A DNA stretch of 41,262 bases from a virus (IMGVR_UViG_3300017691_000003:1-41262); one strand, 5' to 3'. Counted from the stretch's first letter, positions 20,244 to 40,269 are shown. Numbers and translations are program-made. Notes: a model not told the origin generated them from the sequence alone.

Positions 20244-22413
20244 CTAGCGATCCTCCCTCACGGTTCTGGCCGATGTCGCTATCATCAGTCTTCCCGGCGA
20301 CACGCGCGGCATAAGCCTTAACCTCCGCCTCCCGGTCAATCCGATATACAGCGATGTCAGCTTCGGCCTGTGCGCGCTGTTCGGCAAGCTGCATGTCGAG
20401 CATGGCCGCTTCACGCTTCTGCTCCATTTCCAGTGCGTGACGTTCCCGCTGGGCTTCGATCATCGCCGATGCCTTGTCGCGCTCTAGCTGGAGCTGCGCC
20501 GCTGCCTTCTCGCGGTCCATGTCCATCTGGGCCTGCGCGCGCTGCTGCTCCGCCTGGAACTTGGCGTCCTCCCGCTGCTGTTCGGCCTGCGCCGCCAGTG
20601 CCTCGGGGTCGGGCTTCTCTTCCTTCTGGACAGGCTGACCGGTCTGCGGATCAATCTCGGGCGGCGCGTCGGGATCAATCCAGAAGTCATCGCCCTGCCC
20701 AAGCCCGATGTCGCGCACCAGCCCGTCAACGGCGTGGAACAGGTGCTTGCCCTCGACCTGCCCGTTAGCGAAGCCCTCGGCGAGGATCGGGGCGAGCATC
20801 ATGCGCGCCTGAATACGCTTGTCCTTCGACCCCGTGCCCAGCCCGACACGAATGCCGATGTTCACGTCCTCGGGCCACAGCGACGGATCGACCTGCTTGT
20901 ATTGACCATCCACCTTAATCTTGAACGGCTCGCCCTCGCGGCGCATCAGCCGGTACTTCTTCGCCATCAGACGAGAGAACGCCTCGGCGAAGTTGCGAGC
21001 GACGAATTCCTCCTGCTGCTGGCCCTGCGCCTGCATCATGGCCGTGCCGGTGGCGGTCTTGTTCAGCGCGTCGGCGTCCAAGCCCTGATTGAGCCGCGTA
21101 ATACCCGTCCGCGATTCCCGCTCGCCAGTCATCCACTCCATGACGGTCAGCGACTTGCCTACGTCGAAGCTGTTCTGAAACGCCTCGACGCCACCAATCT
21201 CACTAACCCGAATAGGCGCACCGGCAATCGGAGACAGCAGGTCGTCAATCGTGTTCTCGTCCATGGCCCGCGTTGACACGATCGGGCGGGGAAGGTTCGC
21301 CTGGTACATCCCGTCGAGCAACTGGCGGGCAATCGTGGACCGACCCAGCTGAATGTCCATCACCTTATCGGCAAGCGAATACCCGACGAGGCGATGCGGC
21401 CGGGGGAAGGGGCAGAACACGGAGAACGGCTGCTCGTCTACCGTCTCGATCGCTAGCTGACCATCAGCCCAGCGTAGAATCTCGTCCTCTACCCGAAACA
21501 CCTGAACCCGTTCGGCAATCCCGTCACCGTCGATGTCGATGCGAGCGTATTCCTCACGCAGCTCGACCATCTGAAGCGCGGGCGTGCTTTCCGGGTCAGG
21601 CTCCCACGTTCCGTCCTGATCGCGCTCACGAGGCAATGCCGTATAGCTGGGCAGCCCGTACACCTGCTCCCGGTCGAAACCCATGTCCACCAGATCGGAG
21701 CGGGTCTTGATCGGAACATGCGCCAGATAGTCCGACTCGTCCTCATGACGGGCGCGCGCCGAATAGCGAAATTCCTCCGGAGGTATGGGCTGGTCAATGA
21801 ACAGCTTACGCTTAAGCGTGCGCTTTAGTTCTAGCGTGTAGCTGCCGTCCTCATTTTGCTCTGCGGTCTCTACTTCACCGTCAAACCCCTCAAGCTCGAC
21901 AGGGTCTGCAATCGTTACACGGTCACGCTGGATTTTCTCTTCAGTGACAACGCTAGTTTTTGTCACTCCATACTTCTGGAGCAACCCGTCGGAAAGCCAG
22001 TCATGCAGAACCCGGTAGCCGTCCTGATCCCGCATGAAGCTGTAGCCGATCGCCGATGTCGCCTCGTCAGTGCGCTCCTCGTCGGCCTCGTCAGTAGCCT
22101 CGAACTCGACAACCCGGTCCCCGCTGACAAACGTCCGCAGCACGGACGGCACCATGTAATCGATCGTCTCTTGCACGTCGGGCAGGATGATCTGCGACCG
22201 ACCGTCTACCTCGTTGCCGAACGGCTTGGCTTCGTAATAGTCTCGTGCGGCCTCGCGGTACTCGCGGACGCGATCGTATTCCGATTCCGCTGCCTCAGCC
22301 TCACGGCGAAGCGCATCGACAAGCTCGTCCTCATCAATGCCGGTGTCGTTGGCTGCTGCCTGAGGATCAAGCTCAGCCAGTTCCGGGTCAATGAACGCAG
22401 GTGCGGTTGCCAT
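20236..22413 (-). CDS. Portal protein
   Basis: 725 aa, positioned after the terminase. Its C-terminal region of about 110 aa is a Gln/Glu/Arg/Ala-rich coiled coil (barrel-like). Start set to ATG 22413 (MATAPAF) at a TGATG junction. Confidence 0.75.
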   Translation of the reverse strand: MATAPAFIDPELAELDPQAAANDTGIDEDELVDALRREAEAAESEYDRVREYREAARDYYEAKPFGNEVDGRSQIILPDVQETIDYMVPSVLRTFVSGDRVVEFEATDEADEERTDEATSAIGYSFMRDQDGYRVLHDWLSDGLLQKYGVTKTSVVTEEKIQRDRVTIADPVELEGFDGEVETAEQNEDGSYTLELKRTLKRKLFIDQPIPPEEFRYSARARHEDESDYLAHVPIKTRSDLVDMGFDREQVYGLPSYTALPRERDQDGTWEPDPESTPALQMVELREEYARIDIDGDGIAERVQVFRVEDEILRWADGQLAIETVDEQPFSVFCPFPRPHRLVGYSLADKVMDIQLGRSTIARQLLDGMYQANLPRPIVSTRAMDENTIDDLLSPIAGAPIRVSEIGGVEAFQNSFDVGKSLTVMEWMTGERESRTGITRLNQGLDADALNKTATGTAMMQAQGQQQEEFVARNFAEAFSRLMAKKYRLMRREGEPFKIKVDGQYKQVDPSLWPEDVNIGIRVGLGTGSKDKRIQARMMLAPILAEGFANGQVEGKHLFHAVDGLVRDIGLGQGDDFWIDPDAPPEIDPQTGQPVQKEEKPDPEALAAQAEQQREDAKFQAEQQRAQAQMDMDREKAAAQLQLERDKASAMIEAQRERHALEMEQKREAAMLDMQLAEQRAQAEADIAVYRIDREAEVKAYAARVAGKTDDSDIGQNREGGSLDA

Positions 22414-22577
22414 CACCAACGCCTTTTGCGGAGGAGAGCGCGGGTATCGACCTTGAGACCATCTTCCCAATCCTCACTCCTCTCCTCTATGATACCGAAG
22501 CGGGTTTCGCCGGCCTTCCCGCGACGCCAGAAATCAACGATTTTGCTTGTTAAAGTGGCAGGAGACTTGGCGTCCAT
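22413..22577 (-). CDS. 54-aa ORF between terminase and portal
   Basis: Hand translation: MDAKSPATLTSKIVDFWRRGKAGETRFGIIEERSEDWEDGLKVDTRALLRKRRW*. TGATG junctions at both ends. Confidence 0.45.
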   Translation of the reverse strand: MDAKSPATLTSKIVDFWRRGKAGETRFGIIEERSEDWEDGLKVDTRALLRKRRW

Positions 22578-24070
22578 CAAATCACTCCCCGCTTCAGGCG
22601 GCTTAGGTCCAACTTTCCGCCCGCCGATGTCTCAGGACGAATAGCGGCACTCTCGAAGCTCTTATAGCCGTGGGAGAACTCATCATGCAATGCGTATGAT
22701 TTGAACTGGCCCAGCTTGTCGTCCCATGCTTTCCGATAATTGTCGAGGCAAGCTATCAGCCGCGCGCATCGCTCCTCGTCAATCCACACCTTTGCCAAGA
22801 ACGACCGGGAGGCGTCGATGCCAGCCTGCTCCGTGTCGATACGCTTCAACACCTCGATCGGCTTAATACCAGCGCGCTCGGCGTGCATCCGCCTCGTGTC
22901 GGCGACCTCAGTAAGCGACCGCTGGTCCGCATCGTGCGGCATGTAGTGGCGGCTGTAGTTATACCCCTTGCGATTGAGCACGGCGGCGTAATGGCCAAAA
23001 CCCTCTCCGCTATTCTCGTAGTAATCGATCGCCCGGCGCTCAAATCCATGGTCCTGCCAGAACGTAATCGTCATGCTGTCGTTAAGGCCGAGGTCCCACG
23101 TCGTGTAAACCGGGGCTTCCATCACCGGAATACGACAGATGCGACGCTCCCTACGCAGCTTACGCATCTCCGTAGCGAAATACGCCCCCTCGATACTGGC
23201 CTCAAATGCCTCCTGCGCGGTCGAGGGGTACTCGCGCTTCATGTCCTCGCCCTGCTGCTCGGCCTTCTTCACGTACCAAGCCTGCTGTGGCAGCGTCAGG
23301 GATATACGGTGCTTTGCCTCCAACTCCTCGAAATACAGCGCCATCTCGGACGGTATGACCACATCCTCGTGGAGCACATACTCGGCCGAAGTCCACCAAG
23401 GGGCAAAATGGAATTTGAAGTCGAGCGCGGTCAGGTGTGTCCCAGCATCCGCCTTCTTCTGCGCCTGTTGAGTCAGCTCGAAGAAATGACCCGCTTGGCC
23501 CTCCGCCGTGCTTTCCACCACGATCCGCTGACCGGCATCGACCGTGTTGAACGCGCCGGACTTCACCTCTCGGGCTTTCTCAGGATACTTGGCGCACAGC
23601 TTTCCGTATTCCGACACATGCAGCCGCTGTAGGGTGCCCGATCGCAGCGACGTGCCGACACGGATGCTCGACCCATTGCTGAACTTCATGCTCTCGGCAG
23701 CATCCTGCGTCGCGCTTACGACAGCACGAAATTCGACAGGCAGATTGTCGTAAGCGAACTTGATCTTATCGGCGAAGAACGCCTTGGCATCCTGGAGATT
23801 GTGAGCGATGACGCCAGCGGCGGTATTCGGAATGAACAAGCAGTCGTCCAGCATGTCCAGCTGAATGACGGTGGTGAAGCCCTTCTGCCGAGCCTTCAAC
23901 ACCACGTCCATACCGTGGCGACTATCAAGAAACTCAGCCTGGTCACCGTTCATCACGAACGGCACCGTCAGACCGGCCTTGTTCTTGATCCGGTAAAATC
24001 CCTCAGACAGCCGTGCGCGCTTATCCGGCCAGCGTTGAGCGGCAAGGGTTAGGAAGTCTGGCCGAGCCAT
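22577..24070 (-). CDS. terL: Terminase large subunit
   Basis: 497 aa. Has a Walker-A-like VLKARQKGFTT, LHVSEYG, and nuclease-region DLGLNDSMTITFWQ. Overlaps the TerS 3' end. Confidence 0.85.
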   Translation of the reverse strand: MARPDFLTLAAQRWPDKRARLSEGFYRIKNKAGLTVPFVMNGDQAEFLDSRHGMDVVLKARQKGFTTVIQLDMLDDCLFIPNTAAGVIAHNLQDAKAFFADKIKFAYDNLPVEFRAVVSATQDAAESMKFSNGSSIRVGTSLRSGTLQRLHVSEYGKLCAKYPEKAREVKSGAFNTVDAGQRIVVESTAEGQAGHFFELTQQAQKKADAGTHLTALDFKFHFAPWWTSAEYVLHEDVVIPSEMALYFEELEAKHRISLTLPQQAWYVKKAEQQGEDMKREYPSTAQEAFEASIEGAYFATEMRKLRRERRICRIPVMEAPVYTTWDLGLNDSMTITFWQDHGFERRAIDYYENSGEGFGHYAAVLNRKGYNYSRHYMPHDADQRSLTEVADTRRMHAERAGIKPIEVLKRIDTEQAGIDASRSFLAKVWIDEERCARLIACLDNYRKAWDDKLGQFKSYALHDEFSHGYKSFESAAIRPETSAGGKLDLSRLKRGVI

Positions 24071-24657: not shown

Positions 24658-24824
24658 CGGCGCTCTTCCCGAATGGCACTGATAATGACCACAAACCCCG
24701 CCATTATTTTGTTAGCATCGGGCGACATGTGCCAGCCCAAGGCGTAGAATGCCGCCACATCGAGCGCCGTGAAAAACAGCGAGGCGACTATGTAACGCCC
24801 CAAGTCGCGCCAGTAGAGGGTCAT
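24654..24824 (-). CDS. 56-aa small membrane protein
   Basis: MTLYWRDLGRYIVASLFFTALDVAAFYALGWHMSPDANKIMAGFVVIISAIREERR*. Two hydrophobic segments. TGATG junction with the upstream gene. Confidence 0.45.
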   Translation of the reverse strand: MTLYWRDLGRYIVASLFFTALDVAAFYALGWHMSPDANKIMAGFVVIISAIREERR

Positions 24825-25114
24825 CACTCCCCCGCCTGATGCTTACGGATGGTGGAGAGGGCGGCGTGCGCTTCCGGCAAAGCCCATTCCCAAGCTTTGC
24901 CGACGCGCGGCTCGACACCTGGATCACCGATCAGAACGAAGTCGTCCGGCCCCGAACCGCCCTGCGCCGCGTAGATCGCTCGGGCGACAGCCTCGATCAA
25001 CTCCGGAGAAAACTCCTCAGCCCCTTCTCCCTCTACGATGGTCCTTGCGTGGGTGCGGAGGGTTTTGGCCTCTGACTGCGATATTTGGGGGCGTGGCGTT
25101 GATGTGGGGGTCAT
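24824..25114 (-). CDS. Hypothetical protein
   Basis: 96-aa ORF, ATGA junction upstream. Confidence 0.55.
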   Translation of the reverse strand: MTPTSTPRPQISQSEAKTLRTHARTIVEGEGAEEFSPELIEAVARAIYAAQGGSGPDDFVLIGDPGVEPRVGKAWEWALPEAHAALSTIRKHQAGE

Positions 25115-25284
25115 GACGGCTTCCTCCCTTCCTCGTACTCCTCGCGTCGATCCATCGAATGATGGATGTAGACCTCCGCCTCATCGTGCAGGGTTGGGCT
25201 GCACCAGCAATCTTTGGTGCTCGTGTGCGGACGGAGATCGTTGATAGGTTCAACGTGCAGCACATCGGGGTCATATCGCGACAT
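25111..25284 (-). CDS. Small Cys/His protein (DCWCSP...IHHS motif)
   Basis: 57 aa. Start ATG 25284 has GGGGAGGG 5 nt upstream. Confidence 0.5.
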   Translation of the reverse strand: MSRYDPDVLHVEPINDLRPHTSTKDCWCSPTLHDEAEVYIHHSMDRREEYEEGRKPS

Positions 25285-25495
25285 AGCGACCCTCCCCACG
25301 AGCATTCATCTCGACGTGCACAGCCTCGCAAACGAAAGCGCCGGGATCATTGCCGCAGGTGTTAATCCCGCCCGCCTCGTCAGCCCACTCGTCCCAGGCC
25401 CGCTTCAGCTGCGCGGTCGTCAAGCCTTTCACAAACTCGAACGCTGTCGAGTCTTTCGGGATGACCGGCACTATTTGAACAACGTTATAGCTCAC
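25271..25495 (-). CDS. Hypothetical protein
   Basis: 74-aa ORF coupled to its neighbours. Confidence 0.5.
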   Translation of the reverse strand: MSYNVVQIVPVIPKDSTAFEFVKGLTTAQLKRAWDEWADEAGGINTCGNDPGAFVCEAVHVEMNARGEGRYVAI

Positions 25496-26046
25496 GCCGC
25501 CTCTCCCCGCTGAAGCTGTCGACCAAGCTTGATGCCCGCCATGGCGACGCTCTCTGCTTGGTCGGTGTTGCCGAAGATGAACCCATCGCGGCTGAGCTTG
25601 ATCACCAGATCACTTGCCGCTTGATCATCCGGGTCTTCCTCCTGCGGGAGATCGGAGATGATCAGGTCGGCCTCCCGGGCAACCCAACACCATGCCGAAC
25701 CGTGAAGATCCTCGGATGCGGAGGTGTCGGCAGCGCGTCGGCACAGCGCCACCATCCGCTCGACCAACTCAGGCGCGTACTGCGTAGGGGTGGGGTGTTC
25801 GGGGACGTTGCGGATGCGCCAGCCAATATTTGGCCGACCGCGCTTACCTTTCCAAGAGTGAGTGCCATCACGGTTGAAAATTGCCACCGCGCCTTGCTCG
25901 TCCTCAAGGATGGGGCGAATCTCATAGCCACGCCAAGTGCTGACGAGATTTACCGGCACGATGCGCCCGTCGCTATGTACGGCTTCGATCATCGCACTCC
26001 AGTCCACAGCGCCCTTGCCCTGCGTGGTGTTCGGTGTATCAGTCAT
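25492..26046 (-). CDS. Hypothetical protein
   Basis: 184 aa. Start ATG 26046 has GGAGA 6 nt upstream. The track extension to 26142 overlaps the upstream gene. Confidence 0.55.
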   Translation of the reverse strand: MTDTPNTTQGKGAVDWSAMIEAVHSDGRIVPVNLVSTWRGYEIRPILEDEQGAVAIFNRDGTHSWKGKRGRPNIGWRIRNVPEHPTPTQYAPELVERMVALCRRAADTSASEDLHGSAWCWVAREADLIISDLPQEEDPDDQAASDLVIKLSRDGFIFGNTDQAESVAMAGIKLGRQLQRGEAA

Positions 26047-26290
26047 CGGACTTCTCCCGACGAGCAAGCATGGCATCGGCAACAATATACGCCACCGAAG
26101 AGACCGGGCCTTCAATCCCATCGGCACAACCGCCGTTAGCATGGACTTGAATAATTAGCGCTGGAATTGCCTGACCCGCGAACCAGTCACGGAGAGTCAT
26201 TCCATACTCGGGTTCCATGCCCCACGTATTATTACCGGTGTTCGAAAACGCGTACGGGTTGTCGGGCTTGGTCGTTGTGCTATCAGTCAT
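26039..26290 (-). CDS. Hypothetical protein (GMTLRDWFAGQAIPALI motif, common small phage protein)
   Basis: 83 aa. Start ATG 26290 has AGGAGG 8 nt upstream. Confidence 0.55.
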   Translation of the reverse strand: MTDSTTTKPDNPYAFSNTGNNTWGMEPEYGMTLRDWFAGQAIPALIIQVHANGGCADGIEGPVSSVAYIVADAMLARREKSDD

Positions 26291-26305
26291 GTCAGCGGCC
26301 TCCTT

Positions 26306-26355
26306 TGCCGTTAGATGCCGGGATCGAGCGGGCTTCAATACGCTCTCCCGGCATC
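26306..26355 (-). promoter_or_regulatory. Two-tier hairpin plus UCUAACGGCA element (copy on the minus strand)
   Basis: Minus strand: GATGCCGGGA-GAGCG-tattgaagcc-CGCTC-ga-TCCCGGCATC-TAACGGCA, then AAGGAGG and ATG 26290. Same architecture and 3' flank as 39191..39242. Confidence 0.6.
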
Positions 26356-26356
26356 G

Positions 26357-26464
26357 TTAAACTAGGTGCGGGGTCATCTCTACCGGTTCCCGCTTCCAAC
26401 CCCGGACAGCCCCTTTCGGCTTAGCTGCGTCGGAATGCCTCTTCACAACTTCGATGCCGGTCAT
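26357..26464 (-). CDS. 35-aa micro-ORF
   Basis: MTGIEVVKRHSDAAKPKGAVRGWKREPVEMTPHLV*, the C-terminal part of track ORF 26357..26629. The longer version overlaps the better-supported ORF 26538..26708. Confidence 0.3.
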   Translation of the reverse strand: MTGIEVVKRHSDAAKPKGAVRGWKREPVEMTPHLV

Positions 26465-26537
26465 GACTCCAGCTGTCAGGGCATGTGACGCCCGAGACCG
26501 CACTATGCGCTTGGTTTCGTCAGGGTGCAAACGGTTT

Positions 26538-26708
26538 TCACGCCCGCCGAAACTCACTGATGTCGTGCAGCCAGCCCCGCTTCTCCCACACAAGCTGACC
26601 GATGCCGTAGGGTCGAAGCGACTCGCCACCTCCTGCCCATCGTACGATTACCTGGGTATCGGCGGGCCACTTGGACGGCGGCCGACCGGGATTGTCGAAC
26701 CACGTCAC
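26538..26708 (-). CDS. 56-aa ORF
   Basis: (GTG)MTWFDNPGRPPSKWPADTQVIVRWAGGGESLRPYGIGQLVWEKRGWLHDISEFRRA*. GTGA junction upstream. Confidence 0.4.
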   Translation of the reverse strand: MTWFDNPGRPPSKWPADTQVIVRWAGGGESLRPYGIGQLVWEKRGWLHDISEFRRA

Positions 26709-26830
26709 CGCTTAACCCTATAGACTTCATCAAACGGTTTTGTACCGCGCCGCTTACATTCGCGTTCGTATGCAGCCCGCTTATCCGCAAGAGAAAGATC
26801 AGGCCTAGCCATAACCTGCGTCCAGTCCAT
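26705..26830 (-). CDS. 41-aa ORF
   Basis: MDWTQVMARPDLSLADKRAAYERECKRRGTKPFDEVYRVKR*. TAATG junction upstream and GTGA downstream. Confidence 0.4.
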   Translation of the reverse strand: MDWTQVMARPDLSLADKRAAYERECKRRGTKPFDEVYRVKR

Positions 26831-26958
26831 TACCACGTCTCTCGATAGCTAGCTGTCATGCGCCAGTATTCCTCTTTCAGCCGCTCCAACGAACGTCGAG
26901 GCGGAGGAAAGCGAGGCTTATCCCACGGTATCCAACGGCCATCCCGTCTGTCCTTCAC
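26830..26958 (-). CDS. 42-aa ORF
   Basis: (GTG)MKDRRDGRWIPWDKPRFPPPRRSLERLKEEYWRMTASYRETW*. GTGA junction with the upstream gene. Confidence 0.4.
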   Translation of the reverse strand: MKDRRDGRWIPWDKPRFPPPRRSLERLKEEYWRMTASYRETW

Positions 26959-27266
26959 CGCAACACCGCCTGGACCAGCCTAGCCCCGTCGAGCAGCAGC
27001 TGTAGCGATCCACGCAACCGCATCAGCTTGCTCATCGGCTCACCACTGACAACCGCCAGCGACGCCATCCGATTCACGTCGGACAACACGCCTAGCAGGT
27101 GATCGCTGCCCCTCGACATACCTACCGCTGCCTCGTCACGGATGCGGGCGAGGTCGCAACGCACCTGCATCTCGGCTTCCGTGATGTTCGGACAGTGCAT
27201 GCTGATCGTGTGGGCGTAGGCGCGCTGTTCGACGGTCGGGCCTTTGGGTACGTGCCGCTTCGTCAT
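26955..27266 (-). CDS. Hypothetical protein
   Basis: 103 aa. Start ATG 27266 forms ATGA with the helicase stop. Confidence 0.55.
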   Translation of the reverse strand: MTKRHVPKGPTVEQRAYAHTISMHCPNITEAEMQVRCDLARIRDEAAVGMSRGSDHLLGVLSDVNRMASLAVVSGEPMSKLMRLRGSLQLLLDGARLVQAVLR

Positions 27267-28726
27267 GCGACCTTGCGTCCTTTGCCCTTCGCCCAACGTA
27301 TATCCTTGGCGCGAATCCACTGCATCGTCTCAGGCGAGGGCGTGACCGGTACGTGCGACAAGCCCTGCGGCCATACCTTAAAACGGTCCCTATAAGAATG
27401 ATTTACCCAGCCGTCTGACCGCTTCCTCGCCAGCGCCACATGCTTCAGCTCACTGAAGAACCGTTGCTTGTCCGCCATCGTAGGCTCCAGCTTCTTCGGC
27501 CCCTTCTTCTCCCCATCAACCAGTACGAGCGAACCGGCGGCTTCCTCCATATCGCTATGGCGCTTGTTCTCAAAACCACAGGCAGGGCACTGCTTTACCC
27601 CAGCGGGCTTCACAGCGGAGCAGCGCGGGCACCCCTTGGGAATGGACGCGGCCTCCGCTTGGGACTGTTGCGCCTCGCCCTTCTTCGAACAGTCGAGCGT
27701 GTCGCAGCGGATGTCGATCGGCAACCCGAGGCGCAGGATGTTGTCGCTATGGTCGAGCACGATCGAAGTGGGCCATTCGGAAAACGGGCGCAGTCTCCCC
27801 AGCTTCTGAACGTGCCGCATCCGGCTTTTCGTGGGCTGCGCGTCAACGATCGTGCCGAACTTCCAGTCCACCCCCTTAATCATCGTGCCGACCGCACACA
27901 CGACCATGATCTCCCCGGCGTCGAGCTGGCGGCGGATGGCCTTGCGCTCGATCACCGGGGTGTCACCCGAAATGAACGCTGCCGGGATCGCCGCGCGCTC
28001 GAACCGCTCCCGCATCGTCTCGGCATGAGCGAGGTCTACGCAGAAGCACAGCGTGGGCCGGTTCATCCCCATGTGACTCCACGTCTGTACCACGTCAGCG
28101 ACCAGCTTCTCGCCTCGCATGACCTGAGACAAGGCGGTGTCGTCGTACTCGCCAGCGCGGACCTTGACGCCGGTTAGGTCGGGATGACCGGGCGCGTAGG
28201 CTTCGAGCCGGGCGACGTAACCAAGGTCAGTAAGCTCGGCGATGCTGGCGGGCTGGATCAGGTCGTCAAACACTAACCCCATACCCTTAGCCCAAGGCGT
28301 AGCAGACAAGCCGATGAACGGGGCGGCGCTACCTTCGACCAAGGTGTGATGCGCCTTGTAGAGCGTGTGGCACTCGTCAATGATGCACAGATCGAACGCC
28401 GGGCAATCGCGACGGGCCAGTGTCTGTACCGACGCCACCTGTATCGGCTTGGACGCGTCGGTCATCGGGTGATCGGCCTGAATGACCCCGATCCCATGCA
28501 AGCCCTCGGCGTACAGCGCGTTGACGGTCTGGTCGATTAATTCCACGGCATCGACAACGAAGAGAATGCGCTTACCCTTGGCGATGGCGTTGTCGATGAT
28601 CTTGGCGGCTATGAGGGTCTTACCTGCCCCCGTTGGTAACCTGAGTACCGGGCGGCGCTTGCCTGAGCGAAGCGACTGGCGGAGCTGGTCTATCGCCTTG
28701 GTTTGATGGGGGCGAAGAGTTTTCAT
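27263..28726 (-). CDS. SF2 DEAD/DEAH-box helicase with C-terminal zinc ribbon
   Basis: Walker A LRLPTGAGKT, motif II IIDECH, motif III LSATP, CPRCSAVKPAGVKQCPACGF, and a basic W-rich C-terminal tail. Confidence 0.85.
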   Translation of the reverse strand: MKTLRPHQTKAIDQLRQSLRSGKRRPVLRLPTGAGKTLIAAKIIDNAIAKGKRILFVVDAVELIDQTVNALYAEGLHGIGVIQADHPMTDASKPIQVASVQTLARRDCPAFDLCIIDECHTLYKAHHTLVEGSAAPFIGLSATPWAKGMGLVFDDLIQPASIAELTDLGYVARLEAYAPGHPDLTGVKVRAGEYDDTALSQVMRGEKLVADVVQTWSHMGMNRPTLCFCVDLAHAETMRERFERAAIPAAFISGDTPVIERKAIRRQLDAGEIMVVCAVGTMIKGVDWKFGTIVDAQPTKSRMRHVQKLGRLRPFSEWPTSIVLDHSDNILRLGLPIDIRCDTLDCSKKGEAQQSQAEAASIPKGCPRCSAVKPAGVKQCPACGFENKRHSDMEEAAGSLVLVDGEKKGPKKLEPTMADKQRFFSELKHVALARKRSDGWVNHSYRDRFKVWPQGLSHVPVTPSPETMQWIRAKDIRWAKGKGRKVA

Positions 28727-29643
28727 GACAGCGCTTCAGCAAACAAGCCGCTCTGCCGATCGTAGAAATGATCCTCCGCCTTTGGCTTGGTCGCGCTCGG
28801 ATTGTATTCGGCCCAAGGCGTCGATCTCCAGCGATGCGTGTTGGTCCACCGCTGCATCTGGCGGAGACGCTGCCCGCTGCCCCAATCGTGGCGGACCCAC
28901 GGATCGCGCGTCGGGGCGTTCAGCTTCATGATCGGCTGGGCGTACGGCTCGCCGCCCCACTCGATGACCTCCAGAACGCGGGCGAGACAGTCCGCTTCCG
29001 GCTCGTTGCCGATAAGCACGTAGACCTGTATCTTCCGGCTTGGAACGCCTCGGTCGCGGAGCATCTTGCAGACGCGACGCACGTCCTCGCGCTCCTTCGT
29101 CTCGTCATAGGCGAAGCGCCACACGCCCTCGTTGATCGGTGCCCAACGCTCGTAGACCTCGCCGTCGAACGTCGCCGGTTCGAAGCCGCTGTTGGCGTCG
29201 AGCAACGGGACGCCGGCGTGACGGTAGCGATCGATAATGTGGCGCTGGTACTCGGCCGGGAGCGCCGACAGGTTGTTGTCGGTCAGAACCGGCCGAACTG
29301 GGAAGTCGGGCAGGTAGGTGAAGGCGCGGCCTTCCATCGCCGGGACGATGCAGAAAGAACAGCCGACCGGACATCCTCGGCTCGCCGTCGTCGCCATCGG
29401 GTTGTGTCGGCGGATTGCGTCGGGCACGTCGCCGCCCAGCGTGGCGACCTTCTCAAGCATGGACCGTCCACGAAAAAGCGCGGGTCCACCTGCCCGAACT
29501 TGGTATCCCTCAGCACGAAGCATAGACGCACGGGCGAAAGCTTCATCCAGCTTCCAGGTAAAAACAACCGACAGGAACGCCGTTTCACCCTCGATCCATT
29601 CGGCTAGTCCCTTAGACCAGCTTCCTAGCGTATGCCCGCTCAT
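28723..29643 (-). CDS. Radical SAM enzyme (short, COG1032-like core with a truncated Rossmann-like N-terminal domain)
   Basis: ASRGCPVGCSFC contains the CX3CX2C cluster motif. DANSGFE matches the GGE-type SAM motif position. VYVLIGNEPEADC resembles fi.G.PgEt. The N-terminal part FLSVVF...QVRAGGPAL resembles the end of a B12-binding-like domain, but no DxHxxG is present. ATGA junctions at both ends. Confidence 0.75.
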   Translation of the reverse strand: MSGHTLGSWSKGLAEWIEGETAFLSVVFTWKLDEAFARASMLRAEGYQVRAGGPALFRGRSMLEKVATLGGDVPDAIRRHNPMATTASRGCPVGCSFCIVPAMEGRAFTYLPDFPVRPVLTDNNLSALPAEYQRHIIDRYRHAGVPLLDANSGFEPATFDGEVYERWAPINEGVWRFAYDETKEREDVRRVCKMLRDRGVPSRKIQVYVLIGNEPEADCLARVLEVIEWGGEPYAQPIMKLNAPTRDPWVRHDWGSGQRLRQMQRWTNTHRWRSTPWAEYNPSATKPKAEDHFYDRQSGLFAEALS

Positions 29644-30221
29644 GCCACTGCCTCCTGATCCCAAGCTATGTTCCGTGCGCCAAAATGCTGCCGTGGGATA
29701 GCTTTCGGCCTAACCGTCACGAATTCCCGCCACGATTCCCGTGATTCGAGCGATAGCGCCCTAGCGAAACCCTCGCGAAACCGGTCGCAACGTCCCCACA
29801 GACCGGAGAACCAGACCCATGACGGTGCAACCTTAGTCCCTTTGCTATATGCACCATCGCCATTTGTCCCCTTTTCTTCGCGCAGCAAACCGGGTGCGAA
29901 AGCATCGCGGATCGCCTTGCAATCGACGGCCATGCGCTTGCGATTTCCCCGGCCTACGCCACCGAACACCACGACGATAAACCCGCGCTCGACCAGCTTG
30001 GCAATGAGCCGTTTGACAGCCCGAACCGTGTAGCCGATCCCAGCCGCGATAGCCTCATAGCCTGGGGCGAGCGGAGCGCCCTTGCCCTCATGCCGCCACC
30101 AGCGCTCCATAAGCCACTTCATGGCCCGGTACTCGCCAATCGGTAAGTTGATGGCAATGAGGTTGCGGTAAAAGCGACGCTTGCTGGCGGTGATCGACAG
30201 CTTGAACGGCTGGCGGATCAC
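29640..30221 (-). CDS. Winged-helix protein, replication-initiator-like
   Basis: 193 aa. GYEAIAAGIGYTVRAVKRLIAKLVERGFIVVV is a wHTH pattern as in phage Rep/O-like or DnaD-like initiators. GTG 30221 forms GTGA with the upstream stop. The track N-terminal extension is rejected. Confidence 0.55.
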   Translation of the reverse strand: MIRQPFKLSITASKRRFYRNLIAINLPIGEYRAMKWLMERWWRHEGKGAPLAPGYEAIAAGIGYTVRAVKRLIAKLVERGFIVVVFGGVGRGNRKRMAVDCKAIRDAFAPGLLREEKGTNGDGAYSKGTKVAPSWVWFSGLWGRCDRFREGFARALSLESRESWREFVTVRPKAIPRQHFGARNIAWDQEAVA

Positions 30222-30604
30222 CGCCCCGCCTCGCGCTTCTTGGCCAATGCCGACTGGTAGCGCAGATAAGCGGAGACAATCGCTCGCGCTGGGTCGTCCG
30301 AATACCCATCGTAGCGGATTTGGGCTTTCGCGGCCGGACTCGACCCATAAACCGAGCAACCAACCCCAGTCAGCCTTCGCCAATCAAGCGGCCTAGGAAG
30401 CAACGCAAGGGCAGCGTCCATTGACTGCATGTACAGGGGTTCAAACTTCCACCCCATCTCGGCATTGATCTGGTCACCGAGTATCGCGTCGGCGTGTTCG
30501 GCCTCGTCAACGCGATCAGCCAGCAAAGCCAAACGCTCACTAGCAAGTGCGCTCTTGCAACTCGGACGGTTTTCGGGCATTACGCCATTGTCGGCGTCAG
30601 TCAT
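30218..30604 (-). CDS. Hypothetical protein (possibly phage ABA-sandwich/DUF2591-like)
   Basis: 128 aa. Start ATG 30604 has GGAGA 7 nt upstream. INAEMGWKFEP...AIVSAYLRY is a weak resemblance. Confidence 0.5.
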   Translation of the reverse strand: MTDADNGVMPENRPSCKSALASERLALLADRVDEAEHADAILGDQINAEMGWKFEPLYMQSMDAALALLPRPLDWRRLTGVGCSVYGSSPAAKAQIRYDGYSDDPARAIVSAYLRYQSALAKKREAGR

Positions 30605-30672
30605 GTCGTATTCTCCAACATCCGTGTTCTGACGACCCCAGGTGCTTCCAACACCCCGACCGCCCCGCATCA

Positions 30673-30700
30673 CCCCGGCTGACATGGAAGACAGCCGGGG
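30673..30700. repeat. Perfect 9-bp inverted repeat (CCCCGGCTG / CAGCCGGGG, 10-nt loop)
   Basis: Lies in the 111-nt gap between the SLOG gene stop and the replication block. Flanked by CCGC...GCGG that could extend the stem. No U-tract. Confidence 0.6.
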
Positions 30701-30715
30701 GAGCGGAAAACCTCT

Positions 30716-31081
30716 CTAGCCTACATCACCACCAGAGGCAAGCGTCACCGGCACGCCAGCAGCCTTAGCGCGGCGCACCATATCGGCCGTGCCGCGCCCA
30801 CCGGGAAACGCTACCACGAGATCGGGCTTGCCTTCGTCAATCATGCGCTGGTTCCGGATTGGACCCGCTCGATTACCGAAGCGTTTCCAGTCGGCTTCAT
30901 ACGTTTCGCACTCAGCATCGGTTATGTACGCATATGCCCGACCCGATGCGTCAGCACCTTTTGCCCCGCCCTCTATGATCGTTTCAATCGGCCGCATGCG
31001 TTCACCAGCAATTCCGCTGAGCACGGAGATCACCGCCTCCCGGTCATTGTAATCTCGACCGCCGCAAACCAAAACGCGCAT
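30716..31081 (-). CDS. SLOG-superfamily protein, DUF2493/YspA-like (copy 1)
   Basis: RVLVCGGRDY...IIEGGAKGAD...AGPIRNQRMIDEGKPDLVVAFPGGRGTADMVRRA. TGATG junction at 31081. Confidence 0.7.
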   Translation of the reverse strand: MRVLVCGGRDYNDREAVISVLSGIAGERMRPIETIIEGGAKGADASGRAYAYITDAECETYEADWKRFGNRAGPIRNQRMIDEGKPDLVVAFPGGRGTADMVRRAKAAGVPVTLASGGDVG

Positions 31082-31278
31082 CACTCACCCTCCATCAATG
31101 TGATTACCCGGTAGTACGGCCCATCCGCCTCGGCAAAACCCGCCGCCCAAGCATCGTATCGAGCGGCTTGGCTGACTGGCATCCAGGGATTGTCCTTGGC
31201 GTCCTTGCCCTCGCGTTCTGCCTGCCTGCCCCGGTCGAACTGACCAATCAGGGCGCGGTCGGATAGATGCTCAGTCAT
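31081..31278 (-). CDS. Rmf/CrpP-like small protein
   Basis: 65 aa. RGRQAEREGKDAKDNP...RYDAWAAGFAEA aligns by eye with E. coli RMF RGYQAGIAGRSKEMCP...RSQWLGGWREA. Confidence 0.45.
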   Translation of the reverse strand: MTEHLSDRALIGQFDRGRQAEREGKDAKDNPWMPVSQAARYDAWAAGFAEADGPYYRVITLMEGE

Positions 31279-31612
31279 TGGCGTAATCCAGCACAAACCT
31301 GCCTTCCGCACACCGCTCGGCGAATTGAACGCGCGGCTCTAGAAGGTCGCGGTCGTTGATCCTGCACGCATCCGCTACGCCGTCCTGATACGCCTTCATT
31401 GCTCCGACAACGCCATCCCTATCGGGCAACGGACCTCGCGGCTTCGGGTACACGGTCACAACCAAGCGGGAAAACGCAGCCGGGCGCGTGGTGTCAGCAA
31501 GCGTCGCAGCGTGCGCCCATTCCCGATGCTTCTTCGTCTCTCGGCCTTTGCCGCCCCAATGACCCCTGCCGTTCGGCCACAGGATTTTAGCAGGATAGGG
31601 CAGCTCGATCAC
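31271..31612 (-). CDS. rusA: RusA-family Holliday-junction resolvase
   Basis: 113 aa. LPYPAKILWPNGRGHW... and PDRDGVVGAMKAYQDGVADA match the RusA D.DN..K...D pattern. GTGA junction upstream. Confidence 0.65.
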   Translation of the reverse strand: MIELPYPAKILWPNGRGHWGGKGRETKKHREWAHAATLADTTRPAAFSRLVVTVYPKPRGPLPDRDGVVGAMKAYQDGVADACRINDRDLLEPRVQFAERCAEGRFVLDYAND

Positions 31613-31758
31613 CGCCCCTCATCCTTTCGACGCTGCCGCAATTCGTCAGCCTTGTCCGCCATCCGCTCGACGTAATCGCGTGTGACCTGTTCGGGGTCGC
31701 AGCTGCGTCCGTCGCGCTGGTTCTGCTCCATCTGTTCAAACCACCAATCGGGGGCCAT
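31609..31758 (-). CDS. 49-aa ORF
   Basis: MAPDWWFEQMEQNQRDGRSCDPEQVTRDYVERMADKADELRQRRKDEGR*. AGGAGA 6 nt upstream. TAATG junction upstream and GTGA downstream. Confidence 0.5.
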   Translation of the reverse strand: MAPDWWFEQMEQNQRDGRSCDPEQVTRDYVERMADKADELRQRRKDEGR

Positions 31759-31949
31759 TATCGTTCTCCTCTACGTCTAGCCTTGGACTCTCGCTCCAGC
31801 CTTCGCTGGCATAGCAGGCACCGCGAACGCCCAGCAGCTACCCGGCTATTGCTAGCGGTGCGCTCATGTCCGCAGGGGTAGAACCGGTTGGTCCCTTCCA
31901 TGCGGACGGTGCGGTTTCGCAGGCCATCGTCGGCAATGAGGGGTTTCAT
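31758..31949 (-). CDS. Small Cys/His zinc-finger-like protein
   Basis: 63 aa. FYPCGHERT...RSRCLLCQRR. ATGA junction upstream. Confidence 0.5.
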   Translation of the reverse strand: MKPLIADDGLRNRTVRMEGTNRFYPCGHERTASNSRVAAGRSRCLLCQRRLERESKARRRGER

Positions 31950-32167
31950 GCGGGAACCGGCGAAGCAGGTAGAGGCATCCAATGCGTAGGTTGATTGTCA
32001 GGTCCGCAATCTCGCCCGATATGGCACCCCGTCGTCATCCAACGCCGTCCGGTGCCCATGTCCACCTGCATGGCCCGATAGATTCCTTCGCCGTAGTGCT
32101 CGGCGTTTGGAATGAAGACCAGAACGCTGTCGTTTGTCGGTGCTGTATGGATCGGCTGCCACGTCAT
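31946..32167 (-). CDS. DUF551-like protein (copy 1)
   Basis: MTWQPIHTAPTNDSVLVF...PTHWMPLP. ATGA junction at 32167. Confidence 0.65.
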   Translation of the reverse strand: MTWQPIHTAPTNDSVLVFIPNAEHYGEGIYRAMQVDMGTGRRWMTTGCHIGRDCGPDNQPTHWMPLPASPVPA

Positions 32168-32583
32168 GCTGCTTCCTCCATCGGCATCGCCTGTCGCCAC
32201 GCTGCCGCCAGTTTGTCAGGGTCGTTGATCCAGAACGCGCCCGTCTCCAGCTGACGCCGCAACAGCGCACGGCATCCGTCCGCAGCCTTGCGCCGTGTCT
32301 CCATGCCATCCGCCAGGATGCGACGAGCGGCCTTGTCCCGACTTGTGCGTCGGTTGGTCAGCGTCGTCCTGCCCGTGCTGGTGATGGTGACAGAGCGAAC
32401 ACCGCCCCGACTGTGGACCGTGAGGAAGCCACCCTTCTCCAAGTCGGCAAGGCGGTCGCTACAAAACCGCTCGGATCGGCCGAGTTCTGCGGCCATGTCC
32501 TGATTGCTCGGGCAGGGCTGGTTGTCCTCGGCGGCGATTTTCACCATGCGGTAGATGGCTAGGGTCTCGTCATCGATTGTCAC
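32164..32583 (-). CDS. Winged-helix (MarR-like) DNA-binding protein
   Basis: 139 aa from GTG 32583 (GAGGAAG about 9 nt upstream). PSNQDMAAELGRSERFCSDRLADLEKGGFLTV. The upstream part of the track ORF looks non-coding. Confidence 0.5.
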   Translation of the reverse strand: MTIDDETLAIYRMVKIAAEDNQPCPSNQDMAAELGRSERFCSDRLADLEKGGFLTVHSRGGVRSVTITSTGRTTLTNRRTSRDKAARRILADGMETRRKAADGCRALLRRQLETGAFWINDPDKLAAAWRQAMPMEEAA

Positions 32584-32597
32584 GGGTGAAACTTCCT

Positions 32598-32774
32598 CTA
32601 GAGCTTGATGAGCGTGGAATCGGCGCGGACTTTTGATCCAGTGCGCGGTATCTTGCCGTTGAAGCTGAAACGCGGCCGATACAAACGACGAGGGTCGATC
32701 ACAGCGTGAAACCCGAAAGTGCCGTTCTGCGCCTTGATCCAAGCGGCGGGAAGCGGACTGACGATGGCTTTCAT
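32598..32774 (-). CDS. 58-aa basic ORF
   Basis: MKAIVSPLPAAWIKAQNGTFGFHAVIDPRRLYRPRFSFNGKIPRTGSKVRADSTLIKL*. ATGA junction upstream. Confidence 0.4.
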   Translation of the reverse strand: MKAIVSPLPAAWIKAQNGTFGFHAVIDPRRLYRPRFSFNGKIPRTGSKVRADSTLIKL

Positions 32775-32905
32775 GGCTCGCGGCCGTAATGGAAGCCATC
32801 GTCTGCTTCGTAGCCGATCGGTGCCAGCCATTGGAGCAGCGGATTGACGCAGAACCGCCAGATTACCCACACGAAAAACGCGACGGCAAGAATGTCCCAG
32901 ATCAT
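32771..32905 (-). CDS. 44-aa ORF with N-terminal TMD
   Basis: MIWDILAVAFFVWVIWRFCVNPLLQWLAPIGYEADDGFHYGREP*. ATGA junctions at both ends. Confidence 0.45.
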   Translation of the reverse strand: MIWDILAVAFFVWVIWRFCVNPLLQWLAPIGYEADDGFHYGREP

Positions 32906-34400: not shown

Positions 34401-34546
34401 GCCGCTTCACCCGCTCCGAACCCGACTACTCACCCCCGCTATCCCAATGGCAGCGTGACCGTATGCGGGGGCATCTGCTTCCGATGGACGCGCCGGGCAA
34501 TCAGCACTCGTGGATCGTGCGGGCTATCAAGAGGATGTTTCGATGA
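34397..34546 (+). CDS. 49-aa ORF
   Basis: MSRFTRSEPDYSPPLSQWQRDRMRGHLLPMDAPGNQHSWIVRAIKRMFR*. ATGA junctions at both ends. Confidence 0.4.
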   Translation: MSRFTRSEPDYSPPLSQWQRDRMRGHLLPMDAPGNQHSWIVRAIKRMFR

Positions 34547-35178
34547 GTGGCGTCTACAAGGCAATCGCTAAGGTCCAGGGTGATCTGGCTAAGACTGGCA
34601 TCGCTAAGAACCGCAAAAACACACAAGGCAGCGGCTATAACTTCCGCGGTATTGATGACGTATATGCGGCGCTATCCCCCCTCTTGGCGGAGCATGGTTT
34701 GGTCATTGTGCCGCGTGTTGTCGAGCGCGAGCAGGTGGAACGGGCAAGTAAAAGCGGCGGCATGCTGTTCTATACTACCGTCAAAGCCGAGTTCGATTTT
34801 GTTGCGGTTGAGGACGGATCGGTTCATACTGCTTCGACCTATGGCGAGGCTATGGATAGCGGCGACAAGTCCACCAACAAGGCTATGAGCGCCGCGTACA
34901 AGTATGCGGCCTTCATGACGTTTGCCATCCCCACCGAGGGAGACAACGATGCTGATGCCGCAACGCATGAGGTCATTCGCGGGCCGGTCATTTCTTCCCA
35001 GCAGGAGCAGGAACTTAACGGGTTAATCGTTACCGCTGGTACGACTGTGGCAGCCTATTGCGACCGCCTGAAAGTTGCCAGCGTGGCTTCGATTCCCGCT
35101 GCGATGTTCGAGAAATCCAAGGCCGTTCTTACTCGACGCATCGAGCAGCAGGAGGCGGAGAATGGAGCAGCGCAGTGA
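34543..35178 (+). CDS. erf: ERF-family single-strand annealing protein
   Basis: GYNFRGIDDVYAALSPLLAEHGL and GEAMDSGDKSTNKAMSAAYKYAAFMTF are ERF hallmarks. Start ATG 34543 at an ATGA junction. Confidence 0.75.
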   Translation: MSGVYKAIAKVQGDLAKTGIAKNRKNTQGSGYNFRGIDDVYAALSPLLAEHGLVIVPRVVEREQVERASKSGGMLFYTTVKAEFDFVAVEDGSVHTASTYGEAMDSGDKSTNKAMSAAYKYAAFMTFAIPTEGDNDADAATHEVIRGPVISSQQEQELNGLIVTAGTTVAAYCDRLKVASVASIPAAMFEKSKAVLTRRIEQQEAENGAAQ

Positions 35179-35779
35179 CGACTGGTTCGCTACCCGCCTC
35201 GGCAAGGTAACCGCCTCCTGCATCAGCAAGGTCATGGCCCGTACGAAGACCGGCTACGGTGCCGAGCGGGCCAACTACCTGTCCCAGCTCGTCGTAGAGC
35301 GTATTACCGGAAGCCGGGAGCAGGGCTTTACCAACGCCGCTATGCAATGGGGAACCGACAAGGAACCCGATGCACGCGCAACCTACGAATTTGACCGCAA
35401 TGTCTCCGTTGTGGAGGAAGGCTTTATGCCGCATCCGACGATTGATATGGCCGGGGCATCACCAGACGGCTTGATTGGCGATGACGGCTTGGTTGAGATC
35501 AAGTGCCCAAATACCGCCACGCACATTGCAACGCTGACTGGCTCCTCAATTGACGATAAGTACGTCAAACAGATGCAGTTTCAGATGGCATGTGCAGGGC
35601 GTCAGTGGTGTGATTTCGTTTCGTATGACCCCAGGATGCCTGTCGAGATGCAGCTTCACGTTTGCCGGGTCGAGCGCGATGACGACCTGATCGCCAAAAT
35701 TGAGGAGGAGGTGAAAGCTTTTCTCTCCGAGGTCGATGCCACCGTTGCAGACCTCAACGCGCGGTATCGGAAAGCCTAA
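35162..35779 (+). CDS. YqaJ-type (lambda-Exo-like) PD-(D/E)XK exonuclease
   Basis: RSDDWFATRLGKVTAS..., GASPDGLIGDDGLVEIKCP, KYVKQMQFQMA. AGGAGG 6 nt upstream of ATG 35162. Confidence 0.75.
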   Translation: MEQRSDDWFATRLGKVTASCISKVMARTKTGYGAERANYLSQLVVERITGSREQGFTNAAMQWGTDKEPDARATYEFDRNVSVVEEGFMPHPTIDMAGASPDGLIGDDGLVEIKCPNTATHIATLTGSSIDDKYVKQMQFQMACAGRQWCDFVSYDPRMPVEMQLHVCRVERDDDLIAKIEEEVKAFLSEVDATVADLNARYRKA

Positions 35780-36084
35780 TGGCCAAGAAGCCGCCCACCG
35801 CTGCCGAGCGCGCTCACATGGCATGGGTAGGCGGCTTGCCGTGCCTTGTGTGTGGAAAGAACGCTACCGTGCATCACGTCACCGCATACGCCGACCGCAT
35901 GGGTCGACTGGCGAGGTCGCACCGCCGCGTTGTACCACTTTGCGGGCAGCACCATCAGGCTATCCACGACAAGGTGAGCGATCCGCAGTCGGTTGAGCTG
36001 CTAAGCCATCGGGGCTTTTACGCTAAGCATGGTATCGACCTGTACGCTGAGGCTGTGCGGCTTGCCGAGGAACGTGGACTGTGA
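35779..36084 (+). CDS. HNH-type nuclease (DUF968/Ref-like pattern)
   Basis: LPCLVCGKNATVHHV...RRVVPLCGQHHQAIH. TAATG junction. Confidence 0.6.
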   Translation: MAKKPPTAAERAHMAWVGGLPCLVCGKNATVHHVTAYADRMGRLARSHRRVVPLCGQHHQAIHDKVSDPQSVELLSHRGFYAKHGIDLYAEAVRLAEERGL

Positions 36085-36476
36085 CCAAGTTTCAGCCCAT
36101 CCGCCTCGTCGGGCCTCGCCAGCGGGAATACGCCCACCGTGCCGTAGAGCAAGCACCAGACGGCTACGTGGTCCGCATTGGTGCTGAGACACGCCGGGAC
36201 GCGCAGAACCGGAAGATGTGGCCGCTATTGGAGGACATTCGTCGCCAGGTGCCGGGCATGGAGGAATACACCAAGGACGACATCAAGCTCAGGTTTTTGA
36301 ATGCCCTAGGGGTCGAGATGCGGTTCCTCCCGGCGCTTGAAGGGCAGGGCGCTTTTCCGATCGGGCTGAAATCGTCCACGCTGACGGTTGAGCAGTTCTC
36401 CGGGTTGCTCGAACTTATCCAGGAATATGGGTCCCGGCATGGCGTCCGGTGGAGCGAACCGCAACAACCCGCTTGA
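36081..36476 (+). CDS. ninB: NinB/Orf-family recombination mediator
   Basis: RRDAQNRKMWPLLEDIRRQV and LTVEQFSGLLELIQEYG resemble lambda NinB. GTGA junction. Confidence 0.65.
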   Translation: MTKFQPIRLVGPRQREYAHRAVEQAPDGYVVRIGAETRRDAQNRKMWPLLEDIRRQVPGMEEYTKDDIKLRFLNALGVEMRFLPALEGQGAFPIGLKSSTLTVEQFSGLLELIQEYGSRHGVRWSEPQQPA

Positions 36477-40262: not shown

Positions 40263-40269
40263 AAGCGTG

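Follow-up and report, generated by a model that had tools for sequence, protein, structure and literature searches.

Radical S-adenosylmethionine (SAM) enzymes that join an N-terminal Rossmann-like domain to a radical-SAM core include AprD4 (6fd2), a 1,2-diol dehydratase whose example shows that a radical-SAM enzyme of the B12-domain-like type can do without cobalamin. AprD4 is a protein of 454 amino acids (aa) with a full N-terminal domain and a C-terminal extension; its substrate is an aminoglycoside, its gene belongs to a biosynthetic cluster, and AprD3 is its partner. Other described enzymes of comparable fold are the class B (cobalamin-dependent) radical-SAM methylases (e.g., MgmA/QCMT, TokK and PhpK) and MiaB and RimO, which share with MtaB the hallmarks of an N-terminal UPF0004 Cys triad and a TRAM domain. 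Phage-encoded radical-SAM enzymes are represented by QueE (7-carboxy-7-deazaguanine synthase), NrdG and the isomerase of thymidine hypermodification, all linked to DNA/nucleotide metabolism. These enzymes require partner genes, namely QueC, QueD, FolE and DpdA for QueE, NrdD for NrdG, and genes for a hydroxymethylase, a kinase and a pyridoxal-phosphate enzyme for the isomerase (PMC5889632, PMC8989533). The viral DNA IMGVR_UViG_3300017691_000003:1-41262 (41,262 nucleotides (nt); this whole stretch is called the window below) encodes a 306-aa protein that resembles AprD4 in having an N-terminal Rossmann-like domain and a radical-SAM core, and is likewise phage-encoded.

Motifs and predicted fold of the radical-SAM protein

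As judged from its sequence and a structure prediction, the 306-aa protein of the window is a true radical-SAM enzyme, an orphan whose B12-like N-domain is degenerate. The gene and its parts are as follows.

28723..29643, minus strand: radical-SAM gene, 306 aa (open reading frame (ORF), motifs, phrog_9298 match at E 5e-12, and family searches)
29350..29373, minus strand: CX3CX2C motif (C91, C95 and C98), predicted ligands of the SAM-binding [4Fe-4S] cluster, invariant in alignments
29446..29616, minus strand: predicted truncated Rossmann-like (B12-binding-like) N-domain, aa 10-66 (secondary structure of the AlphaFold2 (AF2) model)
28840..29394, minus strand: predicted radical-SAM (beta-alpha)6 core, aa 84-268 (AF2 model with a predicted local distance difference test score (pLDDT) of 91.3, Foldseek and conservation)

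Counted from its ATG, which has an AGGAGG 7 nt on its 5' side, the protein has 306 aa, and the longest ORF of the same frame opens at TTG 29664. The motifs that the initial annotation had placed in the ORF 28723..29643 were borne out by our reading and lie as follows: SRGCPVGCSFC (C91, C95 and C98), DANSGFE (149-155) and VYVLIGNEPE (207-216). It had also regarded non-conservation of the Cys triad among homologs as a reason to abandon its proposal; the three Cys proved invariant in 21 close homologs, in 49 distant full-length homologs (24-53% identity) and in a 60-sequence set, and the triad is evidently not a product of chance. In the 49 distant members, G52, G90, D122, N124, R176 and W254 are also invariant, in addition to C91, C95 and C98, while S25, F28, W30, G53, D149, G153, D180, Y208, R222 and G230 are near-invariant. 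Homologs with as little as 24% identity keep the triad along with some 20 signature residues. The candidate SAM-contact motifs DNN (122-124), DxNxG (149-153) and VLIGxE (209-214) are conserved as well, and the last of them, read as VLIGxEPE at beta5, appears to resemble the GFPGET motif of methylthiotransferases and COG1032 proteins. The earlier label of DANSGFE as the motif in the GGE position is doubtful: according to the strand order of the AF2 model, DANSGFE follows beta3 and the invariant D122-N123-N124 follows beta2, so that DNN would take the usual GGE position.

The first AF2 model, made with 21 close homologs, had a pLDDT of 71.8 and yielded weak Foldseek matches; it was replaced by a confident model from the 60-sequence alignment (pLDDT 91.3, predicted template-modelling score 0.85). 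The latter model has six beta-alpha units at aa 84-268, i.e., the partial triosephosphate isomerase barrel of a radical-SAM core, among whose conserved residues are D122, N124, D149, N151, G153, R176, D180, Y208, R222 and W254. Only about three strands precede the core (beta13-18, beta21-26, alpha29-44 and beta48-52). In the 49-member alignment the longer relatives have one more beta-alpha unit at the N-terminus; 12 of the 49, again the longer ones, weakly match the Pfam B12-binding model, for which the window protein gave no match. The N-terminal stub of a B12-like domain proposed in the initial annotation is thus supported both by the predicted strands and by the longer relatives. Base-off cobalamin binding uses a Rossmann fold of five parallel strands (PMC9204698), and the complete five-strand cobalamin domain that marks the class B methylases is missing from the window protein with its approximately three strands. 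Given that the Rossmann domain is reduced to a stub, the short form is probably cobalamin-free, and its dependence on cobalamin is unlikely.

Comparison of this model with the PDB by Foldseek gave five matches at E <= 1e-3, all of which are radical-SAM enzymes. A search of the viral structure library BFVD gave no significant match. The best match was AprD4 (6fd2; E 3e-6, TMq 0.60), which is 14% identical to the window protein and differs from this phage orphan of 306 aa in the length, biosynthetic context and partner described above. It was followed by MgmA (9ccb; template-modelling (TM) score 0.53) and MiaB (7mjv; TM 0.51), and all three are two-domain radical-SAM enzymes. By sequence profile, the class B methylases are nearest (9ccb, E 4e-4) and by fold they come second, with all their matches far under the family cut-offs. 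In the sequence and profile search of the PDB, matches to MgmA and RimO were confined to the local cluster motif, and a designed PPR protein that ranked top was rejected as a repeat artefact.

None of the collections searched (i.e., Pfam, NCBIfam, PHROGs and PADLOC) yielded more than sub-threshold radical-SAM or B12/radical-SAM matches and the function-less phrog_9298. The Pfam model Radical_SAM (PF04055) scored 23.5 bits against a cut-off of 29.5 and covered aa 88-113 only; it was matched by 24 of the 49 relatives at E <= 0.01. The MiaB/RimO models of NCBIfam scored 10-15 bits against cut-offs above 250, and the B12-binding/radical-SAM families TIGR04072, TIGR04013 and TIGR04014 were matched weakly, far under their cut-offs. 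The phrog_9298 match (E 5e-12) spans aa 62-276. PHROG 9298, labelled "radical SAM domain protein", is an annotation-level cluster that covers only a distant, mostly anaerobe-phage branch of the family, and its annotated member in the metagenome-assembled virus vir215 is a full-length family member. PADLOC matched neither the window protein nor its stand-alone relatives P0144 and P0159.

The initial annotation had left room for a confident match to a characterised family, and no such match was found to QueE, NrdG, HemN, MiaB/RimO or spore photoproduct lyase (SPL) with Pfam, NCBIfam and Foldseek. For QueE, NCBIfam and Pfam gave no match and Foldseek gave E 0.11 and TM 0.19 (5tgs). Just one of the 49 relatives matched the models for NrdG2 and the pyruvate formate-lyase activating enzyme (E ~0.008), the latter of which reached E 0.02 and TM 0.33 in Foldseek (3c8f). 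No SPL model or structure was among the sequence, profile and Foldseek matches. The clade branches from the part of the superfamily that comprises the B12-binding-domain/radical-SAM enzymes and the methylthiotransferases, and is specific to phages and prophages.

This placement raises the question of whether the protein modifies host or phage tRNA or rRNA in the manner of MiaB, RimO or RlmN and thereby retunes translation. RNA-bound MiaB is among the top fold matches (MiaB and RimO entries 7mjv and 4jc0, TM 0.51-0.53), MiaB/RimO models match weakly at the cluster motif, where RGC..C.FC..P is shared, and a universal substrate would fit the spread of the family across phyla. However, only the three Cys of the triad are invariant, there is neither an N-terminal Cys triad for an auxiliary cluster nor a match to UPF0004 or TRAM, and the fusion partners described below are DNA methylases and ParB_N rather than RNA-binding domains. 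We therefore regard RNA modification as quite improbable.

Neighbourhood and distribution of the gene

The radical-SAM gene lies between two other genes within an operon on the same strand.

29640..30221, minus strand: upstream winged helix-turn-helix (wHTH) protein, 193 aa, GTG start (HTH_36 at 19.6 bits, under the cut-off; phrog_270 at E 2.6e-5)
27263..28726, minus strand: downstream superfamily 2 (SF2) helicase, 487 aa, ResIII/DEAD core, RadD-like (ResIII E 9e-24, phrog_16 E 8e-81, NF053632 E 3e-21)
24824..32799, minus strand: early/middle operon with a 4-nt xTGA overlap at nearly every junction (junction scan)

To the initial annotation, the wHTH protein, taken as initiator-like, the radical-SAM protein and the helicase formed a stoichiometrically co-expressed trio, which suggested a replication-coupled or DNA-directed function or action on a host factor, and whose gene order could be sought in relatives. 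We gathered 129 related loci, of which 108 remained as non-redundant at 90% identity of the radical-SAM protein. Homologs of the wHTH protein were found at none of the 108 loci, jackhmmer included, and those of the helicase at 6-7, where they lay before or after the radical-SAM gene, anywhere between positions -10 and +5. In comparisons by blastn and tblastx with the closest relatives (by protein identity, Sphingomonas sp. PsM26 locus L006, 85%; IMG/VR loci L050, 83%, and L051, 80%; and L137, 85%), homology to the window was restricted to 28723-29670, i.e., the radical-SAM ORF. The five neighbours on each side at the 108 loci formed 860 BLAST clusters of at most 10 members. A Pfam search of 296 neighbours within three genes revealed a generic mix of phage early, replication and recombination functions (i.e., SF2/SNF2 helicases, DNA methylases, YqaJ/RecT, integrases, DUF5131, RusA, NinG, HNH, PrimPol, VapE and ribonucleotide reductase), with no family in more than about eight proteins. 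Neither the clustering of the five flanking genes nor the Pfam search of the three flanking genes revealed a conserved partner. Given that homology ends at the ORF borders and that no neighbour recurs, the gene is, as these comparisons indicate, an autonomous, strongly conserved single-gene mosaic cassette that moves between phages. The wHTH protein and the helicase are context only and not conserved partners of the radical-SAM protein.

The partner families of QueE, NrdG and thymidine hypermodification do not recur beside the gene at the other loci, where none of the QueE partners was among the Pfam families of the neighbours within three genes, and neither QueE partners nor NrdD were found in the scanned genes of the window (i.e., the early region and the plus-strand genes). 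Ribonuc_red_lgC, found in two neighbours at other loci, is the large-subunit barrel of class I/II ribonucleotide reductase, not a glycyl-radical enzyme. DUF5131 (PF07505, the phage Gp37/Gp68 family) occurs within three genes of the radical-SAM gene at five loci, with E-values down to 5e-94, which may reflect no more than a shared niche.

A translationally coupled stoichiometric machine of initiator, radical-SAM enzyme and helicase at the origin or fork is suggested by the adjacency of the three genes, whose overlaps are present as first reported: ATGA at 29640-29643 lays the radical-SAM ATG over the wHTH TGA, and ATGA at 28723-28726 lays the radical-SAM TGA over the helicase ATG. SF2/SNF2 helicases are also among the commonest Pfam families near the gene elsewhere (about 12 of the 296 neighbours). 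The overlaps are, however, not special to the trio. Among ORFs of at least 50 codons, xTGA junctions were found at 32167, 31949, 31612, 31084, 30221, 29643, 28726, 27266, 25495, 25114 and 24827, and at about one third of the radical-SAM junctions of the other loci there are 4-nt overlaps, whatever the neighbour. Overlaps that are operon-wide here and generic elsewhere reflect compact phage operon structure and not a dedicated complex, and it should be noted that start/stop overlaps in a compact phage operon are no evidence of a functional complex. The initiator assignment rests on weak matches, to phrog_270, whose label is "replication initiation protein", and to HTH_36 below its cut-off, and no iterons or origin were found in or near the wHTH gene, where the repeats were chance two-copy ones. 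With the closest relatives sharing the radical-SAM ORF only, and with wHTH homologs missing from all 108 loci, we consider such a machine hardly credible; the neighbourhood in relatives is random, as the initial annotation had foreseen for the case that its trio did not hold.

The family comprises 3129 clusters at 90% identity (E <= 1e-3) in the large-database search, all of which are unnamed or "hypothetical" and lack a precomputed Pfam domain, and 1129 clusters at 50% identity in an exhaustive profile search. IMG/VR contributed 152 matches. Neither Pfam nor NCBIfam has a family-level model, and no paper on the family was found in the published literature. Matches in genomes come from Alphaproteobacteria (Sphingomonas, Methylobacterium, Phenylobacterium, Rhizobium and Azospirillum), Burkholderiaceae and Gammaproteobacteria, and further from Acidobacteriota, Chloroflexota, Planctomycetota, Gemmatimonadota and Brevibacillus. 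Full-length members are carried by Bacteroides phage LoVEphage, Clostridium phage phiCT453B, Marinitoga camini virus 1 and a Methanomassiliicoccales virus, where they are annotated as "radical SAM domain protein" or "hypothetical" only. The prophage contexts of relatives include integrases, terminases, RusA, NinG, YqaJ/RecT, helicases and DNA methylases. The family is confined to phages, prophages and other mobile elements, and is found across many bacterial phyla and in archaeal viruses.

Several members show further peculiarities. The Dehalococcoidia metagenome-assembled genome CBDFJL01 has three copies (L035, L046 and L047) that are 47-48% identical to the window protein, which implies several prophages or elements with the gene. 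In LoVEphage, the gene is one of a series of nucleic-acid-modifying accessory genes (L138:2930-6603) that also comprises a PAPS-reductase-like gene, DUF551, a split Dam methylase and RtcB. LAGLIDADG/Hint inteins are found in P0226, P0338, P0138, P0214 and P0260. In several relatives the intein lies directly at the third Cys of the motif; that of P0226 is inserted between the F and the third Cys of CX3CX2C, so that a cluster Cys serves as the +1 extein nucleophile. Insertion at this site, typical of conserved active sites, supports a real enzyme. Long members with unexplained extra regions include P0272 (491 aa, with a precomputed PF01078 match) and P0285 (757 aa).

A stand-alone gene in a phage early region may also encode an enzyme with a small-molecule, nucleotide or protein substrate (e.g., a radical dehydratase or methylase that forms or removes a metabolite or signalling nucleotide, or one that modifies a host protein) that serves counter-defence or takeover of the host. 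Genes of this kind are often counter-defence genes, and one neighbour of the family is the CBASS inhibitor Acb3; the best fold match, AprD4, is a cobalamin-free diol dehydratase, and the second, MgmA, acts on a protein. The family is, however, conserved very highly in comparison with typical counter-defence genes, with 60-87% identity while the flanks all differ, PADLOC gave no match, and recurrent fusions to ParB_N, methyltransferase and HTH domains would be difficult to reconcile with a small-molecule enzyme. This possibility is, in our view, unlikely, albeit worth keeping in mind.

Domain fusions and the substrate

The radical-SAM domain is fused to other domains in some relatives. ParB_N-(HTH)-radical-SAM proteins occur in at least six clusters (P0194, P0325-P0328 and P0332; 54-89% identity, full-length coverage), and other architectures are MT-A70-radical-SAM (P0333) and radical-SAM-ParB_N-MT-A70 (P0334 and P0335). 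The fused radical-SAM domains are 64-72% identical to one another, yet they occur in three arrangements. They are 28-32% identical to the window protein, whose signature residues they retain in full (20 of 20) except for P0335 (18 of 20). The ORFs of P0326, P0333 and P0335 were checked and are uninterrupted under the standard code. P0204 joins a radical-SAM domain to a Dam-type methylase that is complete (PADLOC MTase_II, E 2e-29), and other relatives end in a fused HTH_17 or HTH_36 domain. The PADLOC type II methyltransferase matches lie outside the radical-SAM domains, in ParB_N at aa 14-83 of P0194 and in Dam at aa 368-628 of P0204.

Between P0194 and ordinary phage ParB_N-N6/N4-methylase or ParB_N-MT-A70 proteins, the ParB_N modules are 52-74% identical. 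Given this shared module, the radical-SAM domain occupies the methylase position of an architecture known from DNA modification. Phage DNA thymine dioxygenases are reported to be activated by ParB homologs, which are partners of base-modifying enzymes (PMC13229309). Through the ParB_N, MT-A70, Dam, HTH_17 and HTH_36 fusions of relatives, the family is linked to modules that target or modify DNA, and the DNA-directed function suggested in the initial annotation gains independent support from these fusions and none from the helicase context. The family further resembles the orphan phage DNA methyltransferases in its early or nin-like niche, its stand-alone state, its mosaic spread as a single gene and its ParB_N fusion partner, while those enzymes differ from it in fold and in chemistry (SN2 methyl transfer vs. 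radical). On the basis of the fusions and of the early or nin-like position where orphan methylases sit, we propose that the window protein may be a radical-SAM enzyme that acts alone and has phage DNA as its substrate, a possibility to which we give serious weight, short of calling it probable.

Several observations weigh against a phage DNA substrate. Only a small minority of family members are fusions, and the radical-SAM-Dam protein P0204, a singleton, carries little weight alone. With the queries used, neither ParB_N nor a methylase was detectable in the window; elsewhere, ParB_N or a methylase lies within 8 kb at only 25 of the 108 loci, which may equal the background of phage early regions. 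In addition, a ParB_N domain need not be a DNA tether and can instead have an NTPase or regulatory role. Of the top fold matches, AprD4 has a sugar, MgmA a protein and MiaB tRNA as its substrate; none acts on DNA, and the DNA-acting radical-SAM enzymes known to us (i.e., SPL and the thymidine-hypermodification isomerase) all belong to other clades. The isoelectric point of the window protein, 7.1 against a family median of 7.7-8.5, is not notably basic and is uninformative as a hint of nucleic-acid binding.

The same DNA-linked fusions would also fit a repair enzyme that, by analogy with SPL, reverses damage in packaged DNA after injection. SPL sets the precedent of direct action on DNA by a radical-SAM enzyme, and many hosts of the family are ultraviolet-exposed bacteria of soil and phyllosphere (e.g., Sphingomonas and Methylobacterium). 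There is, however, no sequence or fold match to SPL, the methyltransferase fusions suggest modification instead, and the family is also common in phages of anaerobes and of the gut (Bacteroides, Clostridium and Methanomassiliicoccales). A repair function thus seems very improbable, and modification of phage DNA by a stand-alone enzyme remains the reading that we prefer.

The fusion gene of P0326 lies in an islet of approximately 4.7 kb (L134:4168-8888) that contains an integrase, a 278-aa ORF, a 72-aa ORF and the ParB_N-radical-SAM gene, and is flanked by host housekeeping genes for a peptide deformylase and a HAD protein on one side and for CorA and MscL on the other. The islet may be an integrative element of minimal size or else the remains of a prophage, and its 278-aa protein has no relative in the PDB. 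A relationship between the wHTH protein of the window and the HTH_36 tail fused to the radical-SAM domain of P0190 was considered and rejected, as the two show no similarity.

The surrounding phage genome and the meaning of the family

The early operon of the window begins near 32.8 kb and extends to the terminase (22577-24070), beyond which lie the portal (20236-22470) and the structural genes. Its approximately 11 consecutive ATGA/GTGA junctions could couple translation from gene to gene with unusual regularity; among them, the GTG start of the wHTH gene overlaps the stop of a preceding 155-aa ORF. Promoter- and terminator-like sites around the three genes and in the early operon were not above shuffled expectation. 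In the helicase, aa 363-386 and the C-terminal approximately 100 aa comprise a zinc ribbon (CPRC...CPAC) followed by a basic tail, and its best PADLOC similarities are limited to the helicase cores of restriction enzymes. A divergent recombination module on the plus strand (34510-36476) encodes an ERF single-strand annealing protein, a YqaJ exonuclease and NinB; the longest ORFs of ERF and YqaJ overlap by about 100 nt, and one of the two starts is probably internal. Two SLOG-type proteins are encoded at 30716-31084 (minus strand) and 40168-40647 (plus strand), with matches to phrog_289 (DUF2493-like) at E 2e-28 and to Pfam YAcAr at E 2e-13. No tRNA genes were found in the window. The window resembles a temperate phage of lambdoid style, and its host is probably a sphingomonad.

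If the radical-SAM protein acts on phage DNA, it would be a single-cluster enzyme that works alone and needs neither the wHTH protein nor the helicase encoded beside it. Produced from the early operon during replication of the phage genome, it would use the [4Fe-4S] cluster bound by C91, C95 and C98 to cleave SAM reductively, and the resulting 5'-deoxyadenosyl radical would take a hydrogen from a nucleotide residue of the phage DNA. The result would be a covalent mark on a base, or possibly on the sugar or backbone, set before packaging, and it may serve, like the marks of the orphan DNA methyltransferases in the same niche, in protection from host nucleases or in epigenetic marking. The ParB_N, HTH, MT-A70 or Dam modules of the rare relatives would tether the enzyme to DNA, to which the stand-alone form would bind by itself.

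To our knowledge, the described modifications of phage DNA are made either by classical methyltransferases or by hypermodification pathways of several genes. Modification of DNA by a single radical-SAM gene would, if true, be a new biochemical class. More specifically, the family may form a class of single-polypeptide, cobalamin-independent radical-SAM DNA modifiers that leave an undescribed radical-derived mark without a pathway for pre-modified nucleotides, an idea that we hold speculatively and consider somewhat doubtful; such a mark would be, e.g., an alkyl group on a carbon of a purine or pyrimidine or a change to the sugar or backbone, with ParB_N and HTH as optional DNA loaders, and the class would extend over archaeal viruses and temperate phages from many phyla of bacteria. 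If true, it may represent a new chemistry of restriction evasion and a tool for sequence-specific C-H functionalisation of DNA. Given that members occur in cultured phages (i.e., LoVEphage, phiCT453B and Marinitoga camini virus 1), the question is directly testable, and assignment of a function to the family would annotate thousands of prophage genes.

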